A stretch of DNA of 6,212 nt from a virus (taxonomy: Duplodnaviria > Heunggongvirae > Uroviricota > Caudoviricetes): IMG/VR virus record IMGVR_UViG_2778261674_000013. One strand, given 5' to 3'. Below, piece by piece: positions 1 through 6,212 of this stretch (the first letter of the stretch is position 1; each line of letters begins with the position of its first letter). The position numbers were made by a program, and so were the translations under genes. Below the pieces are notes generated by a model. The model worked only from the letters and a program-made list of their open reading frames with translations, searched no databases and was not told the origin of the DNA.

Positions 1-3
1 GTG

Positions 4-24
4 GGATATTCTGAAAGAATATCC
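4..24. repeat. Perfect 9-bp inverted repeat GGATATTCT-gaa-AGAATATCC at the window edge
   Basis: Seen directly: 4-12 is the reverse complement of 16-24, with a 3-nt spacer. Function unknown (hairpin or dimeric binding site). Confidence 0.3.
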
Positions 25-252
25 ATAATGTGGAGAGAATCTATTGAAGTGCATGGTGCCGGGTGCCTCCCGGTGAATTCAGTACCAGCACCTGAATCCG
101 CGATTATCCCATATACCTACTCGCTGATTGCCCCTCCGCACAGGGGGATTCACCATGCCAGTTTCTTTTAACAAACTCCCCGCAAACCAGAGAACAGTCA
201 ACCGCCTGAATTGTGAAGTATTTAAAAATTTCTCCCGCTAACTGATACCCGG

Positions 253-339
253 CTAACAGTCTGGCGTTTTCTTTTTCAGCAACGGGAAAGCAACAACCAC
301 CACACCCGCCACCAGCACACCGTCAGCCAGCACTGACAT
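253..339 (-). CDS. Possible small hydrophobic peptide (28 aa, MSVLADGVLVAGVVVVAFPLLKKKTPDC)
   Basis: ATG at 339-337, stop at 255-253. Hydrophobic core followed by a KKK cluster, like a single-pass membrane peptide. No convincing Shine-Dalgarno; could be a chance ORF. Confidence 0.12.
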   Translation of the reverse strand: MSVLADGVLVAGVVVVAFPLLKKKTPDC

Positions 340-419
340 TATCCGGCTGCTGCAATGCCATTCACAAAAACAGTAAGCAATCACTTTTTACCGTAACAGG
401 TGATAATCCAGATATGTAT

Positions 420-773
420 CTACCCCAGATGAGTAATCCGAAGTTCATCCATACCACAGGTCCTGGCTATTCTGTTGTACTCCTGAACAAGAGCAAATAA
501 TTCTGAATTAGCAACCATGAACTCATCGCAAACCCTCTGTATAGCATCACTATTCAGAATAATAACGTCTCTTCCCGAAAGACGATCAGGAGTACAGAAC
601 AAAACTGTCAAACGGCTGAAGGCCTTTGCTCGTGCTGCATTGACTATATCAATACGCTGCCTAAGGATGAAACACCCCGACGCCTCATCAATATTCACTC
701 TACCCACACCATATGAATGATAAATATTTAATGCTGAAAAAACTATTAGACCGTATAACAAACACTCAATCAA
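420..773 (-). CDS. Hypothetical protein (up to 117 aa) in the cargo slot downstream of the phage tRNAs
   Basis: Longest ORF in this interval, same orientation as the late operon. The upstream-most start is TTG with no obvious RBS, and the first in-frame ATG is at residue 86, so the true start is uncertain. No recognisable motif. Confidence 0.3.
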   Translation of the reverse strand: MIECLLYGLIVFSALNIYHSYGVGRVNIDEASGCFILRQRIDIVNAARAKAFSRLTVLFCTPDRLSGRDVIILNSDAIQRVCDEFMVANSELFALVQEYNRIARTCGMDELRITHLG

Positions 774-883
774 TACTTAACAGAACTTTTATTTTTGACA
801 AACATATTATGTTTTCAACAATATCCTGAGCCAGGTATATTCCAGTATAAGGCTCTGCCGGAAGGAATCTGGAAGAATGAATA

Positions 884-960
884 TGGCGCGCTGTACTGGA
901 TTCGAACCAGTGACCGATTGCTTAGAAGGCAATTGCTCTGTCCGGCTGAGCTAACAACGC
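884..960 (-). tRNA. tRNA-Arg (anticodon UCU), phage-borne rare-codon tRNA
   Basis: Reverse complement folds as a 77-nt cloverleaf: acceptor GCGTTGT/ACAGCGC, D-stem GCTC/GAGC, anticodon stem ATTGC/GCAAT, loop CTTCTAA (U33, anticodon TCT, A37), T-arm ACTGG-TTCGAAT-CCAGT, discriminator G, encoded CCA. Resembles the argN/argO class of Stx-phage tRNAs. Confidence 0.85.
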
Positions 961-994
961 TGAATACCGATAATGGACCGCCATCGGGGACCCG

Positions 995-1003
995 CCCCCC
1001 CCC
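995..1003. repeat. C9 homopolymer (G9 on the transcribed minus strand) between the two tRNA genes
   Basis: Seen directly: nine consecutive C within gacccgCCCCCCCCCgcacc. Confidence 0.9.
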
Positions 1004-1064
1004 GCACCAACAACCCTGTTATCGTGTCGTCTGCTCTTCCTGATAAGCTCATGGCGGTTTGTGA

Positions 1065-1140
1065 TGGTGGCCCTTGCTGGATTTGAACCAGCGACCTGGC
1101 GATTATGAGTCGCTCGCTCTCACCACTGAGCTAAAGGACC
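1065..1140 (-). tRNA. tRNA-Ile2 (anticodon CAU, lysidine type; formally could be read as Met)
   Basis: Reverse complement GGTCCTTTAGCTCAGTGGTGAGAGCGAGCGACTCATAATCGCCAGGTCGCTGGTTCAAATCCAGCAAGGGCCACCA is a 76-nt cloverleaf with anticodon loop CTCATAA. From memory it is very close to E. coli ileX (tRNA-Ile2) and to the ileZ class of Stx-phage tRNAs. One A-C mismatch closes the anticodon stem. Confidence 0.8.
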
Positions 1141-1176
1141 GGGAGCAGAATAATAACGGTCCGTAATTAATTCCGC

Positions 1177-1203
1177 AATAAAAAACCCGCTCGGTGGCGG
1201 GTT
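1177..1203 (-). terminator. Rho-independent terminator, tR'-like (ends the short late leader transcript)
   Basis: Minus strand reads AACCCGC-CACCGA-GCGGGTT followed by TTTTTTATT. GC-rich stem plus U-tract, about 40 nt downstream of the putative late promoter. Confidence 0.6.
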
Positions 1204-1250
1204 GTAGAAACTCTTCTAACGTCAGGCATAAAACGCCCATCGTTATGACG

Positions 1251-1278
1251 AATTTACCACAGATTCCGGAAAAATCAA
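1251..1278 (-). promoter_or_regulatory. Putative Q-dependent late promoter (pR'-like) with extended -10
   Basis: Minus strand: -35 TTGATT (1278-1273), 16-nt spacer ending in TGG, -10 TAAATT (1256-1251). It lies immediately after the Q stop codon and before the terminator, matching the lambda Q-pR'-tR' layout. Confidence 0.5.
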
Positions 1279-1283
1279 CCTTG

Positions 1284-2105
1284 TTACCTAGTTACCTTTT
1301 TTAACTGCCGCTCAGCCCATGCTTCTTCAATATCAAACCGGGTCACCAGCGCATCATAGAATTTCTTAACTGTTTTTTCCCATGACGCGCGTGTTATCTG
1401 GTTTGTCACCTCGCATATAGCATTAAATGCCTCCGTTGATGGTAGTCTTTCATAGCCCCGACCACCACAACGCTGGCAGTCTCTGATAACAGGCATACCA
1501 CGTTTTACCGACTCTTCACGGTGAATGGCGACACCACGCCCACGGCAATCCTTACAGGCGGTGGAAACCTCACCCTTTCCGCCACACTCCGGACAGGCAA
1601 CTTTTACCACCTCCCTGACTTTTTTCCATTCTTCCCAGTAAGACGGATACACACCTTTCGTACACTTTGCCCATACCGGCGGCTTACCATCCGGATACTG
1701 GACCTTGTTTGTAAAAACTACGCTTTCAATAAATTTTTCCCCATAGCAACAAGGGCACTGCTTTTTACTCGCTGCGCTGCGGGCATAATCCTCAAAAGCG
1801 TACGAAGCCATAATGCGCATCACTAACGGTTTTATTTCTGCCGGAAGTTTTCTCAACGCCGCCACACGATCGCACCGACTGAGTGCATAATCTGCCAGTA
1901 ATTCTGTTGCCCGCGCCCTGTCATTCATACTGATGCCCATTTTCCCCAGGAACGCAGAAAACCCCATCTCAGCTCGATTCTGTGTCATGCCCTGCGCGGC
2001 CATCACATCAGTGATACTCAGCGCATCTTTTGACGTTGAGGCCGATGCATCGATCAGGCAAGGGGATTTTGGGGAGTAGTATTTCGGTAAATCTTCCAGT
2101 TTCAT
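1284..2105 (-). CDS. Late-gene antitermination protein Q-like (273 aa), zinc-ribbon rich
   Basis: ATG start overlaps the RusA stop (ATGA). Several Cys pairs (CPCC, CPECGG, CKDCRG, CQRCGG). N-terminus MKLEDLPKYYSPKSP and overall layout match what I recall of the Qin-type Q protein (QuuQ/YdfT family). Synteny rusA-Q-pR'-tR' supports the call. Confidence 0.7.
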   Translation of the reverse strand: MKLEDLPKYYSPKSPCLIDASASTSKDALSITDVMAAQGMTQNRAEMGFSAFLGKMGISMNDRARATELLADYALSRCDRVAALRKLPAEIKPLVMRIMASYAFEDYARSAASKKQCPCCYGEKFIESVVFTNKVQYPDGKPPVWAKCTKGVYPSYWEEWKKVREVVKVACPECGGKGEVSTACKDCRGRGVAIHREESVKRGMPVIRDCQRCGGRGYERLPSTEAFNAICEVTNQITRASWEKTVKKFYDALVTRFDIEEAWAERQLKKVTR

Positions 2106-2476
2106 TTTTTGACCTGCTCTTCATGCATTATGGGGTAAATCTTCACCCCCATACGTCCACCAGATACTGGCTGACCACGAACGATATTGATTTCATCAAA
2201 CTGCTCATCGTCCATTAACACTCCCGCATGCGTCAGCGCATCCAGCGGTGCTTTCAGGATATTGTCCAGGTCGCGACGACGCTTATCCGGTGGCTCTGCA
2301 ATCACCTTTATCGCCAGCCTTCCGGACAGGCTTAATTTCAGCCGCTGCTGGCGAACAATAAGCGCCACAGCCCGGCGATAACGCTTTCCCTCCTCCGAGA
2401 TAAAATATGTGCTGCCACGGCGTCGCCAGTAAGTGTTCACCGTCGGCGGGTAAGGTAAAACCAAATCTATGAGCAT
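2102..2476 (-). CDS. rusA: Holliday-junction resolvase RusA (crossover junction endodeoxyribonuclease), 124 aa
   Basis: Motifs LPYPPTVNTYWRRR and PDKRRRDLDNILKAPLDALTHAGVLMDDEQ match the RusA family. RBS AGAGGTGA precedes the ATG at 2476-2474. Confidence 0.85.
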   Translation of the reverse strand: MLIDLVLPYPPTVNTYWRRRGSTYFISEEGKRYRRAVALIVRQQRLKLSLSGRLAIKVIAEPPDKRRRDLDNILKAPLDALTHAGVLMDDEQFDEINIVRGQPVSGGRMGVKIYPIMHEEQVKK

Positions 2477-2488
2477 CAGTCACCTCTT

Positions 2489-3538
2489 TTACCCAAGCAC
2501 GCCAGTTGCAAAGGCGTGATCAAGAAAACGAAAGATTAAATCAACCTGAGAACCATGCTTTTCTTCGAACGCCAGAGGATCCGCATGAAGCTCGTTGTGA
2601 TGCTCCCGACACAGCGGTAGCGTGAAAATATCGTGAGATTTTGTCCCCATTCCGCCCTGACCATGACCAATCAGGTGATGGGGATCGTCGGCTGGCTTAC
2701 CACAACACGCACACGGCTGTGTCTTCACCCAGCGTGTGTATTTCTCGTTAACCCAGCGGCGACGTTTAGGTCGTTTCATGAAAGATTCCGGAGACTCAGG
2801 ATCAACGGCAATGCTGACCACCGTCTTTTCCTGTGGTGGGTTCTGTTGCTGGTGGGCGTGAGGCAGCGGCGCAAGATTTTTTGTGCGCTGTTTCAGTATG
2901 CTGGTGGCGGTCTGCTCTCCCGGTACGATGTCGCTTTCACGGTACATTGAGCGGATTTTTTCCGCACGCAACCCCAGCGAACGACGTAATACCGCTTCCG
3001 GTAGCGCGTCCGCCACCTGATTGCGGACCGCCCACCAGGATAATTCAGCCAGCGATAATTCCCGCTCCTGTGTGCCATTCATTGCGTGACGAATGACGTC
3101 AATCATCCATGCTGACAAGTTTTGGTGAGCAAGTTGCTCAAGTGATTCGGAGGTCTGGTCACGCAACTGGTTGTCGCAGTGCCAGCACAACACCATTGCG
3201 CCGGTACCATAACGGTGAATGACGGTTTCACTATGGTGATAATCGCCGTGTGGCCACTGGCAGGATTTAACATGGCGCAGTAACCAGTCAGACAATGCGC
3301 CAGCGCCACCAGCAGCACGAATCACTCGTTCGTCGCTGAAAAATGGCAGTAATGATTTATCCTCCGCCAGCGGCTGGCGAACGGCAGGAACGACCCCGGA
3401 CGGCAGATTACGCATGCTTTTCGGTTCCGGCTCCACCAGTACCCGGGTATTGTGGAATACCGGCATGGATTCACGGCCCGGCTTAACGATCACCAGCCCG
3501 AGTTCCGGTACCAGAACAGGTCGAAGTAATACCCGCAC
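2489..3538 (-). CDS. DUF968-family protein with C-terminal HNH-like Cys/His motif (YdfU-like), 349 aa
   Basis: C-terminus CACCGKPADDPHHLIGHGQGGMGTKSHDIFTLPLCREHHNELHA is typical of prophage DUF968 proteins. GTG start at 3538-3536 is preceded by GGAGGT at ideal spacing and sits one base after the upstream ORF's stop. Confidence 0.75.
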   Translation of the reverse strand: MRVLLRPVLVPELGLVIVKPGRESMPVFHNTRVLVEPEPKSMRNLPSGVVPAVRQPLAEDKSLLPFFSDERVIRAAGGAGALSDWLLRHVKSCQWPHGDYHHSETVIHRYGTGAMVLCWHCDNQLRDQTSESLEQLAHQNLSAWMIDVIRHAMNGTQERELSLAELSWWAVRNQVADALPEAVLRRSLGLRAEKIRSMYRESDIVPGEQTATSILKQRTKNLAPLPHAHQQQNPPQEKTVVSIAVDPESPESFMKRPKRRRWVNEKYTRWVKTQPCACCGKPADDPHHLIGHGQGGMGTKSHDIFTLPLCREHHNELHADPLAFEEKHGSQVDLIFRFLDHAFATGVLG

Positions 3539-3539
3539 G

Positions 3540-3818
3540 TTACCTCCAGATGCGTTGCTGGAATGTGCGGGACGGACGCGGTGGGCGTTCGGAGTAAGGA
3601 AGCCTGACGGAGATTATCCAGTGACGGTAGTCGAGGCTAAGGGCTTTTTTAACCTCGTATCCGCGCCTGCGGTAACACTGAATTATCCATTCAGCCTGCT
3701 CTTCAGTGCATGGTGGATGCTGGAACCAGTCCGATTTGAATGCATGAAAACGCCGTCCGCACCTACTGGCAAAGACGGCAGAATCATCAGAATTATGTAA
3801 TTTGGTATCGTGCGCCAT
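3540..3818 (-). CDS. Hypothetical phage protein (92 aa from the internal ATG; the ORF extends to 3929 for 129 aa)
   Basis: Open frame ends 1 nt before the DUF968 start. Neither candidate start has a strong RBS (GAGA before 3818). The N-terminal extension is W/Y/F-rich and may not be coding. Occupies the position Rem has in Qin; sequence not recognised. Confidence 0.4.
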   Translation of the reverse strand: MAHDTKLHNSDDSAVFASRCGRRFHAFKSDWFQHPPCTEEQAEWIIQCYRRRGYEVKKALSLDYRHWIISVRLPYSERPPRPSRTFQQRIWR

Positions 3819-4083
3819 CGGTTGTCTCTGCTGGCGCAGCAGGTGCCAGTTGTTCAGGCTGGCGTATAAAGTATAAATAAACTGGTTCCAGTGTAAAGCC
3901 CCTACATTAATGGAATAAAAGTCAAACAACAGATTGCTGGGATAAACACAACGCTTATTATTAAAAGCGATTAGATAAATTAAATTTTAATGTTATGCAA
4001 TTTTACCAGAACACCATAACATCTCGTTTGAAACCACCGAAACAACAACCATATCAATATTGATTATGTTAAAGTGAGTAAAT

Positions 4084-4170
4084 ATGGAAAACAACAAATC
4101 TGCACATTACGCTCCTTTTTTATCTGTGATACTTTTTGTTTTATGCTGTGTGTGGGCATTATTTTTATAA
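4084..4170 (+). CDS. Possible small hydrophobic peptide (28 aa, MENNKSAHYAPFLSVILFVLCCVWALFL), convergent with hok
   Basis: ATG with a weak GTGAG upstream. Single hydrophobic stretch. No homology known to me; may be a chance ORF in AT-rich spacer. Confidence 0.15.
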   Translation: MENNKSAHYAPFLSVILFVLCCVWALFL

Positions 4171-4179
4171 AAATATTTA

Positions 4180-4208
4180 CAGATAAAATAAACCCGCCGA
4201 AGCGGGTT
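4180..4208 (-). terminator. Rho-independent terminator downstream of hok (UUCG tetraloop hairpin)
   Basis: Minus strand reads AACCCGC-TTCG-GCGGGTT followed by TATTTTATCT. The stem is the same as in the tR'-like terminator. Confidence 0.6.
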
Positions 4209-4247
4209 AAGCGCGGGTGCGTTGAGGATGCCTGACACATCAGAGGC

Positions 4248-4269
4248 GGCGAGGGATTTCTCCCTCGCC
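4248..4269 (-). other. Perfect 9-bp stem / 4-nt loop hairpin immediately 3' of the hok stop codon (possible mRNA 3' fold-back or processing element)
   Basis: Seen directly: GGCGAGGGA-tttc-TCCCTCGCC. No U-tract follows on either strand. Confidence 0.4.
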
Positions 4270-4276
4270 AAGTCTC

Positions 4277-4432
4277 TTACTCCTCAGGTTCGTAGACTGT
4301 GAAGACAGCGACCTCCATCTGGCCGGTTCGGATTCGTACCTCGCAGAGGTCTTTCCTCGTTACCAGTGCCGTCACTATGACGGTTAAACAGATGACGATC
4401 AGGGCGATTAACATCGCCTTTTGCTGCTTCAT
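4277..4432 (-). CDS. hokD: Hok/Gef-family type I membrane toxin (51 aa), HokD/RelF-like
   Basis: Protein MKQQKAMLIALIVICLTVIVTALVTRKDLCEVRIRTGQMEVAVFTVYEPEE is near-identical to E. coli HokD (RelF) as I recall it. Strong RBS AAGGAGAA sits 7 nt before the ATG. The ORF also extends in frame to an ATG at 4489. Confidence 0.85.
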   Translation of the reverse strand: MKQQKAMLIALIVICLTVIVTALVTRKDLCEVRIRTGQMEVAVFTVYEPEE

Positions 4433-4939
4433 AGCCTGCTTCTCCTTGCCTTTCGGCACGTAAGAGGCTAACCTACATGTGCAAAGCATGAAATTGGCCT
4501 CAGATTAATGTTAAGCGTCTTGCCGGACGCGTAATGTTAACTGGGGCTTTTCTCTATCTGCCTTTGGTGTTCATGCCTGAGACAGATAGCCTCAAGCACC
4601 CGCAGCCATTGTACTTAACTCCCGTTACCTCGCCAATATAAAATCAATCAGAAAGGCGATCCATAAGGACAATAGCAAGACAATAAATTGCCATTACCCG
4701 CAATAGCCAGCGCACATTTGAGGACCAGCACGACAACTTTCTGTATCGGACGTACACCAGTCCTGATAAATACAAGGCGGTCTCATCAGTGATGAGATGC
4801 AACTATTGAGTACAGTTTCTCTGATTTTTCTGTAAAACATGGAACACAACAACTAAATATAACTAGCACTTCTTAAGATGTACAAATTCAGAGTTAAGAT
4901 AACGTAAGCAGTTTTCTCAAAACTAAGTGTAAATTTTTA

Positions 4940-5056
4940 ATGAAGAGCAGTGCTATGCTCCTGATCATAAATTCATTGTTTGGAACTGGAGGAATATTTA
5001 GGTTGCTGGAGTGGTTGGTTGAATTTAAATCAACTAAGACAAAAACCAACAATTAA
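4940..5056 (+). CDS. Possible small protein (38 aa, MKSSAMLLIINSLFGTGGIFRLLEWLVEFKSTKTKTNN) in AT-rich spacer
   Basis: Hydrophobic N-terminal half and lysine-rich tail, like a small membrane peptide. No clear RBS; AT-rich DNA generates such ORFs by chance. Confidence 0.1.
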   Translation: MKSSAMLLIINSLFGTGGIFRLLEWLVEFKSTKTKTNN

Positions 5057-5246
5057 AGATATGTGGTATATCAGAAAACAACTATCCGTATATTACTACA
5101 GAATTAAATACTAGCAACAAAGCTGTCTTTATTGATTTTTTATTTGATATCGAAACAAATAAACATAAAATAACCAACTAATTAAAACAGAGACTCGACA
5201 ATGAGCCTCTATCTATTGTAACAGCACTTCCAAATTTATTTTAGTA

Positions 5247-5266
5247 AGATAATAGCATGGGGCATA
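5247..5266. terminator. GC-rich hairpin (7-bp stem ATGGGGC/GCCCCAT, 6-nt loop) just 3' of the 266-aa ORF; possible bidirectional terminator
   Basis: Seen directly. Plus strand follows with CTTTTAAA; minus strand follows with GCTATTATCT. It stands out as a GC-rich stem in AT-rich DNA. Confidence 0.45.
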
Positions 5267-5279
5267 CTAGCCCCATCTT

Positions 5280-6080
5280 TTAAACCGTTTCATCAAGGAA
5301 ATACTTAGACGAATCATCCTGTTTCGGTTGATATGTTTTTTTTGCAGAATTAAGAACTCTTCTTAGTTCTTTTCTTAACTCAGGTAAACGCTCCTGAAGA
5401 GGGTTAGAACACCATTGTGAAGGCAACCCTCTTATAATAGCTTCGGAACAAAGCGGTGAAATAAGTTTTTCCATTTGATAATAGAAAGTTTTTGCTCGAC
5501 TTACACGCATTGTGATCCTTTTTATTACATCTCTTTCAGACTCAATTCTAGCACTCAGATCTCTTAATCTACTCCATACCTTAGCATCAGCAATATATGT
5601 ATCATAAAGCATACACTCTATAAACGTGAAATTACTAATAAGTTCTTTTGCAATATACCCCCCCAGCCGAGAAGGAATGAAACTTGATGAAGCTGTTGGA
5701 TCTCCGTGATTTACGGTGAACAAAAACCTTTTATTGCATAAATCAACGAGAACTCGATGCGTGAAAGAGTCACCTATACCAATTAACCTTAACTTTTCAG
5801 TTATTACCGAACCATCGATTTGTCTGAATCCGGGATCGCTTGCATACGAAACGATAACATTAAGAATGTACAGCCTCAATAATTGCATTTGTGTCACAGC
5901 TAAATTCGAATCAAACGGGTTCGCAATAGTCGACGTTGACTCGCTATAAGTCAACTCAGTACCCAGTAATATAGCTCTAAATGCCTCATGACGTGGAAGA
6001 AGATACCTTCCTTGTTCTCTGAAAATTTGTACTGCTTTACCTGGACTCGTATACCCTCTTTCTAAGAACTCACGAGTCAT
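5280..6080 (-). CDS. Uncharacterised protein (266 aa) in the AT-rich cargo segment; candidate accessory, defence or toxin gene
   Basis: Long ATG-initiated ORF with no internal alternative start for about 60 codons. By eye it is clearly more AT-rich than the adjacent prophage core (not computed). Protein has no motif I can assign confidently: no HExxH, no canonical Walker A, no HNH. Confidence 0.6.
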   Translation of the reverse strand: MTREFLERGYTSPGKAVQIFREQGRYLLPRHEAFRAILLGTELTYSESTSTIANPFDSNLAVTQMQLLRLYILNVIVSYASDPGFRQIDGSVITEKLRLIGIGDSFTHRVLVDLCNKRFLFTVNHGDPTASSSFIPSRLGGYIAKELISNFTFIECMLYDTYIADAKVWSRLRDLSARIESERDVIKRITMRVSRAKTFYYQMEKLISPLCSEAIIRGLPSQWCSNPLQERLPELRKELRRVLNSAKKTYQPKQDDSSKYFLDETV

Positions 6081-6101
6081 ACGTAATGCTGATGAATCCC
6101 C

Positions 6102-6125
6102 TAATGATTTTTATCAAAATCATTA
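6102..6125. promoter_or_regulatory. Perfect 10-bp inverted repeat TAATGATTTT-tatc-AAAATCATTA, 22-45 bp upstream of the 266-aa ORF start; candidate operator
   Basis: Seen directly. The AT-rich palindrome is a poor terminator stem, so a dimeric regulator site is more plausible. Confidence 0.3.
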
Positions 6126-6139
6126 AGTTAAGGTAGATA

Positions 6140-6200
6140 CACATCTTGTCATATGATCAAATGGTTTCGCGAAAAATCAATAATCAGACAACAAGATGTG
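6140..6200. repeat. Nested palindrome: 10-bp arms CACATCTTGT / ACAAGATGTG around a central TTTCGCGAAA palindrome, same centre
   Basis: Seen directly: 6140-6149 is the reverse complement of 6191-6200, and the central 10-bp palindrome at 6165-6174 shares the centre near 6169/6170. Confidence 0.4.
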
Positions 6201-6212
6201 CGAACTCGATAT

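Follow-up and report, generated by a model that had tools for sequence, protein, structure and literature searches.

The two palindromes near the right edge of the window, the whole 6,212-nucleotide stretch of DNA analysed here, belong to a mobile element and not to the control region of the open reading frame (ORF) of 266 amino acids beside them. The segment from 6089 to 6212 is almost certainly the outside end of an IS10 element inserted in an 834-aa gene of a Qin-like lambdoid prophage, leaving the 266-aa ORF as the gene's 3′ stump. The element, of the IS10/ISVsa5 type (IS4 family), reads on the plus strand, starts with CTGATGAATCCCC at 6089 and continues to the right edge of the window, which cuts it at IS10 bp 124.

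The original prediction described a perfect 10-bp inverted repeat with a 4-bp spacer at 6102–6125, within 45 bp of the start of the 266-aa ORF, and a nested palindrome at 6140–6200, and both observations are confirmed. An inverted-repeat search finds exactly the first of these, here called palindrome 1, with arms TAATGATTTT (6102–6111) and AAAATCATTA (6116–6125) of 10 nt each that are 100% complementary across a 4-nt spacer; it corresponds to IS10 bp 14–37 and is absent from inside ends. It is the sole perfect 10-bp inverted repeat with a loop of 3–8 nt in the whole window, and at least one perfect 10-bp short-loop repeat appears in 20 of 500 dinucleotide shuffles of the window. The ATG of the 266-aa ORF lies on the minus strand at 6080, 22–45 bp away from palindrome 1. 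Palindrome 2 has arms of 18 nt (6140–6157 and 6183–6200) that are 83% complementary, with inner symmetries nested between them, and its minus strand folds stably. Folding indicates that both palindromes would form hairpins if transcribed.

The identity of the element follows from alignment. Positions 6089–6212 agree at all 124 nt with the IS10 copy of Salmonella plasmid p220k, in which the identical stretch runs on into a coding sequence annotated as 'IS4-like element ISVsa5 family transposase' whose ATG corresponds to window position 6196. Identity to IS10-right-type copies and to the IS10-left copies of Tn10 is 96.8–98.4% over the same 124 bp. A megablast search with 5900–6212 as query matches 2,184 plasmid records, all of which cover the right-hand 40–43% of the query only, and these matches lie under coding sequences that carry the same ISVsa5 family annotation. 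The IS10 end is also present in 1,812 of 5,426 complete E. coli genomes, and an nhmmer profile built from IS10 outside ends matches more than 60 loci. The palindromes are thus part of a widespread repetitive element, a result that the original prediction had itself named as speaking against a regulatory role for the 266-aa ORF.

The end in the window is a mosaic of known variants. Its spacer TATC (6112–6115) and the A at bp 47 (6135) are those of IS10-left of Tn10, and the G at bp 83 (6171) and the G at bp 107 (6195) are those of the IS10-right/ISVsa5 type. The same mosaic variant occurs in 61 plasmid records. Chromosomal IS10 copies in E. coli and Shigella representatives are of the pure IS10-left type.

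The disrupted gene can be recognised because its uninterrupted form is available. The 266-aa ORF (5280–6080, minus strand) is identical at 266 of 266 residues to residues 569–834 of WP_112869014.1, an 834-aa hypothetical protein of E. coli GF3-3 whose gene is intact, and so represents codons 569–834 of that prophage gene. Among the 5,426 complete E. coli genomes, eight match the left 92% of 4800–6212 and do so without the IS. The window diverges from the empty site of GF3-3 at 6089, which places the junction at 6088/6089, the same position at which the IS10 sequence begins. In the uninterrupted locus, the sequence upstream of the ATG at 6080 is coding DNA, unlike 6089–6212. Judged from these sequences, the apparent start codon at 6080 is an internal Met codon, 8 bp from the insertion point. 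Because the 266-aa ORF is a fragment of the cut 834-aa gene, it has no native upstream region here.

These data bear directly on the proposal that the palindromes regulate the 266-aa ORF in cis, either as autoregulatory operators or as a terminator or attenuator between it and an upstream partner. Such a proposal draws on their position, 22–120 bp from the ATG of the ORF, and on the ability of both to fold as hairpins in a transcript, but it now has next to no chance of being right. It is refuted by the comparison with the empty site, where the ORF is internal to the 834-aa gene and its native upstream sequence is unrelated coding DNA. Moreover, the palindromes move with IS10 into thousands of unrelated contexts. 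The terminator version also lacks a suitable site, because no G+C-rich stem followed by a U-tract was found on either strand of 6089–6212; palindrome 1 is A+T-rich, and the minus strand then reads GGGGAUUCAUCAG. A third suggestion, that of a recombination site marking a cargo boundary, holds in part. Palindrome 1 does lie in the transposase- and IHF-bound end of a mobile element with a boundary at 6088/6089; however, the polarity is reversed, since it is the mobile element that contains the palindromes, and the ORF is the target that it damaged.

Of the 5,426 complete E. coli genomes, only 8 have the 834-aa gene. It is carried there by a Qin-like prophage and lies between hokD and the replication genes (positions 6481–8985, minus strand, in the GF3-3 locus L001). 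Its product carries a Walker-A/P-loop motif, GTVGAGKT, and gives sub-threshold matches only, to NACHT, AAA_16 and HSDR_N_2 in Pfam and to mREase_II in PADLOC. We regard the protein as a candidate defence-type NTPase. Directly after the stop codon of the disrupted gene there is a terminator-like hairpin, ATGGGGCTAGTATGCCCCAT (5257–5276, minus strand), with 7 pairs of which 5 are G-C, and this is probably the gene's own terminator.

IS10 makes 9-bp duplications of its target (PMC4574204). The putative target site here is TACGTAATG (6080–6088), and the empty site of E. coli GF3-3 reads ...GAGTCATACGTAATGCTAATCGAAC. The putative target agrees with the relaxed consensus NRCNNNGYN at only 3 of the 4 specified positions, which counts against this reading. 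A second copy of the 9 bp would be expected at the far end of the IS10, beyond the window. A complete lone IS10 would end in ...GGGGATCTCTCAG (inside end CTGAGAGATCCCC) at 1,329 bp, and there TACGTAATG would follow again and then CTAATCGAAC.... Other IS10 copies are 1,329 bp long, have a boundary at exactly CTGA and are flanked by 9-bp duplications on either side (L018, L049 and L062). This particular insertion was not found in the collections searched: a pattern scan for the exact IS junction gave 0 matches in genome_contigs and 0 in metagenome_contigs, and the insertion is absent from all 5,426 complete E. coli genomes, eight of which carry the empty site.

Because the window stops at IS10 bp 124, the sequence could instead be a truncated remnant, a solo outside end that is neither a complete element nor part of Tn10. 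Partial IS10 ends do occur, both as matches spanning bp 1–37 only and as excision scars. However, all 124 bp, the start of the transposase gene included, are 100% identical to full-length copies, and most genome matches are complete 1,329-bp elements, so that a remnant is improbable here and a complete IS10, alone or as part of Tn10, is the better reading.

Within the element, palindrome 1 coincides with the sites on which transposition depends. The terminal inverted repeat of the outside end, bound by transposase, comprises IS10 bp 1–23 (6089–6111), and missing-nucleoside interference has placed the transposase-binding site at +7 to +23, which corresponds to 6095–6111 (PMC3159471). The IHF-binding site follows at bp 28–42 (6116–6130); it reaches bp +42, and interference has been reported from +28 to +34 (PMC3159471). 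In the window, the IHF core AATCATTAAGTTA is found at 6118–6130 (bp 30–42) with one mismatch to WATCAANNNNTTR. The first 13 bp hardly vary among 24 distinct IS10-family ends, and inside ends have them too. The ATCA and TTA of the IHF core are invariant in 21 aligned ends, and inside ends have no IHF consensus site, so that this site tells outside from inside ends. Palindrome 1 thus lies in the DNA that supports assembly of the transposition complex: its left arm is in the terminal repeat contacted by transposase and its right arm overlaps the adjoining IHF site, where IHF would bend the arm of the transposon back onto transposase.

Palindrome 2 is the stem of an antisense-RNA gene, a role absent from the options considered earlier. 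The minus strand from 6203 to 6134 matches the Rfam family RNA-OUT (RF00240) over its full length (model positions 1–70 of 70) with a score of 98.8 bits (gathering score 41; E = 1.9e-20). The match spans the whole of palindrome 2 and corresponds to IS10 nt 115 to 46/47. Its minimum free energy is -23.9 kcal/mol (z = -4.74), and none of 200 shuffles folds as well. The stem is kept in 19 relatives, with 22 consensus pairs of which 2 are compensatory. One-sided changes in the stem are of the U-A to U-G type and preserve pairing on the minus strand only. Because these changes are compatible with G-U pairing on that strand alone, they point to selection on the minus-strand RNA. RNA-OUT is 69 nt long and ends at IS10 nt 47, and its first 35 nt are complementary to RNA-IN, the transposase mRNA (PMC5006887); in the window these limits correspond to 6203 and 6135. 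Ribosomes are kept from binding RNA-IN that is paired with RNA-OUT, which is the basis of multicopy inhibition, and Hfq accelerates the process (PMC5006887).

The start of the transposase gene lies on the opposite strand of the same region. From the published RNA-OUT figures (PMC5006887), the transposase mRNA would start at nt 81 and occupy 6169–6212 on the plus strand. The transposase ATG is at nt 108 (6196–6198), and the coding sequence leaves the window after 17 nt; these, ATGTGCGAACTCGATAT, are identical to annotated coding-sequence starts (L002–L005). The IS10 transposase is a DDE enzyme of 402 aa that starts at nt 108. RNA-OUT spans this ATG, so that its 5′ part is antisense to the translation start. 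A Dam site, GATC, at IS10 bp 67–70 (6155–6158) is invariant in all aligned ends and overlaps the -10 region of the transposase promoter pIN, where a Dam site has been described (PMC5006887). In the element studied here, RNA-OUT would be a stable antisense RNA of about 69 nt, transcribed leftwards from the promoter pOUT, whose hexamers would lie just beyond the window. It would pair with the start of the transposase mRNA and bring about Hfq-assisted multicopy inhibition. When the plus strand is folded, the transposase AUG lies within the palindrome 2 stem, and transcripts entering IS10 from outside would fold palindrome 2 over the start codon. Sequestration of the IS10 transposase start signals in secondary structure is attributed to Davis et al. 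1985 in a passage of PMC13181058 that cites it.

Neither pIN nor pOUT was found by a simple sigma-70 scan of the window and of an identical full-length copy (L002). This fits a weak match of both promoters to the consensus, and the scan is uninformative for promoters of this kind. Transcription from pOUT is known to read into adjacent genes (PMC9330008, PMC2744996), and some pOUT transcripts could accordingly read out of the IS and enter the gene stump from 6080 to 5280. The only purine-rich run near AUG 6080, GGGGA, lies about 16–20 nt upstream of it. Because this leaves no usable ribosome-binding site before the AUG, we infer no stump product, and translation of the stump from pOUT read-out appears unlikely. 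A connection between OUTIIp and palindrome 1 was also weighed but dropped, since OUTIIp is located at IS10 nt 1000–1230, close to the inside end (PMC11481808).

The known protein sites alone do not explain why palindrome 1 is symmetrical, an observation that we count against our main reading, and we know of no established reason for this symmetry. Inside ends bind the same transposase, yet their bp 14–23 are different and non-palindromic. One explanation is that the symmetry is no mere by-product of the abutting transposase and IHF sites but is itself selected, for example because outward pOUT transcripts fold there into an RNA hairpin that stabilises their 3′ end or signals processing downstream of RNA-OUT, or because the DNA forms a hairpin or offers a protein a symmetric site. 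We consider this unlikely. Its most plausible form, a dyad kept by selection because pOUT transcripts leaving the element form a 12-bp RNA hairpin immediately 3′ of RNA-OUT, is put forward very tentatively.

The comparative evidence comes from 77 loci in species-representative genomes that encode IS10-family transposases of 61–100% identity, from which 24 distinct outside ends were extracted. One case for selected symmetry is IS10A, located beside blaOXA-48, whose end is 77% identical to that in the window: it keeps a perfect 10+4+10 palindrome (L003, 1614–1637) by compensatory pairs at 15/36 and 23/28, and its spacer differs from the window at 3 of 4 positions. In a set of 19 distinct ends, 5 have A-T at pair 15/36 and 4 have G-C. 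In these 19 ends, the minus strand has more paired cells of palindrome 1 (91.6%, against 86.3% on the plus strand), since A-C cells become G-U there. The minus-strand covariation score is reached by 1 of 500 shuffles, a control that related sequences with no structure are known to exceed. The RNA hairpin is stronger on the minus strand, with 12 bp and -11.8 kcal/mol, than on the plus strand (-6.6 kcal/mol), and the non-palindromic inside ends argue in the same direction.

However, independent covariation events are few, and the two clades that have G15/C36 are related. Pairing at 23/28 is lost in 7 of the 19 ends, and 15/36 is unpaired on both strands in 4. The core ATGATTT/AAATCAT is invariant except in the most divergent element (L057/L058), in which the palindrome is lost and no fold is formed; this 7-bp core is uninformative because it does not vary among the closer relatives. 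Nor is the hairpin followed by a U-tract. Taken together, there is a weak sign of selection on the symmetry of palindrome 1. If the symmetry were indeed selected, an undescribed RNA element would be added to one of the best-studied transposons.

The symmetry of palindrome 1 has one outcome that can be seen in sequence data. Nearly precise excision of Tn10 reportedly proceeds via a 24-bp repeat and leaves a 50-bp remnant. Because palindrome 1 is its own reverse complement, it forms a direct repeat at both ends of Tn10 and can serve as the crossover point of this process. A 50-bp scar in IncF plasmids (L083, 151–200; L084, 151–200) consists of CTGATGAATCCCC from the IS10 end, the 24-bp palindrome and GGGGATTCATCAG from the inverted end (13+24+13 bp), with the 9-bp duplication CGCTCTGCC on either side. 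It recurs in 931 PLSDB plasmid records, and since the flanks are identical, these records go back to one inherited event. The scar records a single old Tn10-type 'nearly precise excision', a process traced to Foster et al. 1981 where PMC5991714 cites that work. A literature search for a description of the 50-bp scar returned unrelated TIME/MITE work only.

The remainder of the window is prophage DNA. Positions 1–6088 are 99.7% identical to the Qin-like prophage of GF3-3 and carry genes for the Q antiterminator, RusA and a DUF968 protein, together with hok/sok, two tRNAs and STnc100. The hok/sok type I toxin-antitoxin locus (4277–4601, minus strand), annotated as hokD in the GF3-3 prophage, contains a Hok/Gef family ORF of 70 aa (4277–4489, minus strand) and the sok antisense RNA (RF01794, 115.7 bits, 4427–4601). 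The STnc100 small RNA (RF02076, 108.9 bits) lies at 1–187 on the minus strand and is cut by the window edge. The two prophage tRNA genes (884–960 and 1065–1140, minus strand) encode tRNA-Arg(TCT) and a tRNA with a CAT anticodon, which ARAGORN assigns to Met and the GF3-3 annotation to tRNA-Ile. STnc100 and both tRNA genes are located downstream of the Q antiterminator gene.

The practical consequences are mainly for annotation. The 266-aa ORF should be annotated as a pseudogene fragment, a mobile-element boundary should be placed at 6088/6089, and 6134–6203 should be recorded as encoding a known antisense RNA. The disrupted 834-aa gene, a rare prophage cargo inactivated in this strain, is of more interest than the palindromes, which leave the current understanding of IS10 unchanged.

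An IS10 outside end with RNA-OUT is already known, and the end described here closely resembles its characterised counterparts. With IS10 itself (IS10-left and IS10-right of Tn10; ISVsa5 in NCBI annotation) it shares 96.8–100% identity over 124 bp with no functional difference, and the terminal repeat, the IHF site at bp 28–42, the GATC at bp 67–70 and the ATG at nt 108 are all at their published positions (PMC3159471, PMC5006887). No difference from RNA-OUT (RF00240) was detected either: the match is full-length, the stem-loop is the same, and the 5′ 35 nt are antisense to the transposase start. The IS10A/IS1999-type elements that flank Tn1999 with blaOXA-48 are alike in their CTGA...ATCCCC end, their 10+4+10 palindrome at bp 14–37, an IHF-like core, an RNA-OUT-like stem and a transposase ATG at about nt 107. 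However, the transposase of IS10A is 71% identical, its end is diverged to the extent given above, and both palindromes carry compensatory substitutions. In elements of this type, Pout drives the adjacent gene (PMC9330008). The scar of nearly precise Tn10 excision has palindrome 1 as its central unit, whereas the window contains an unexcised end instead.
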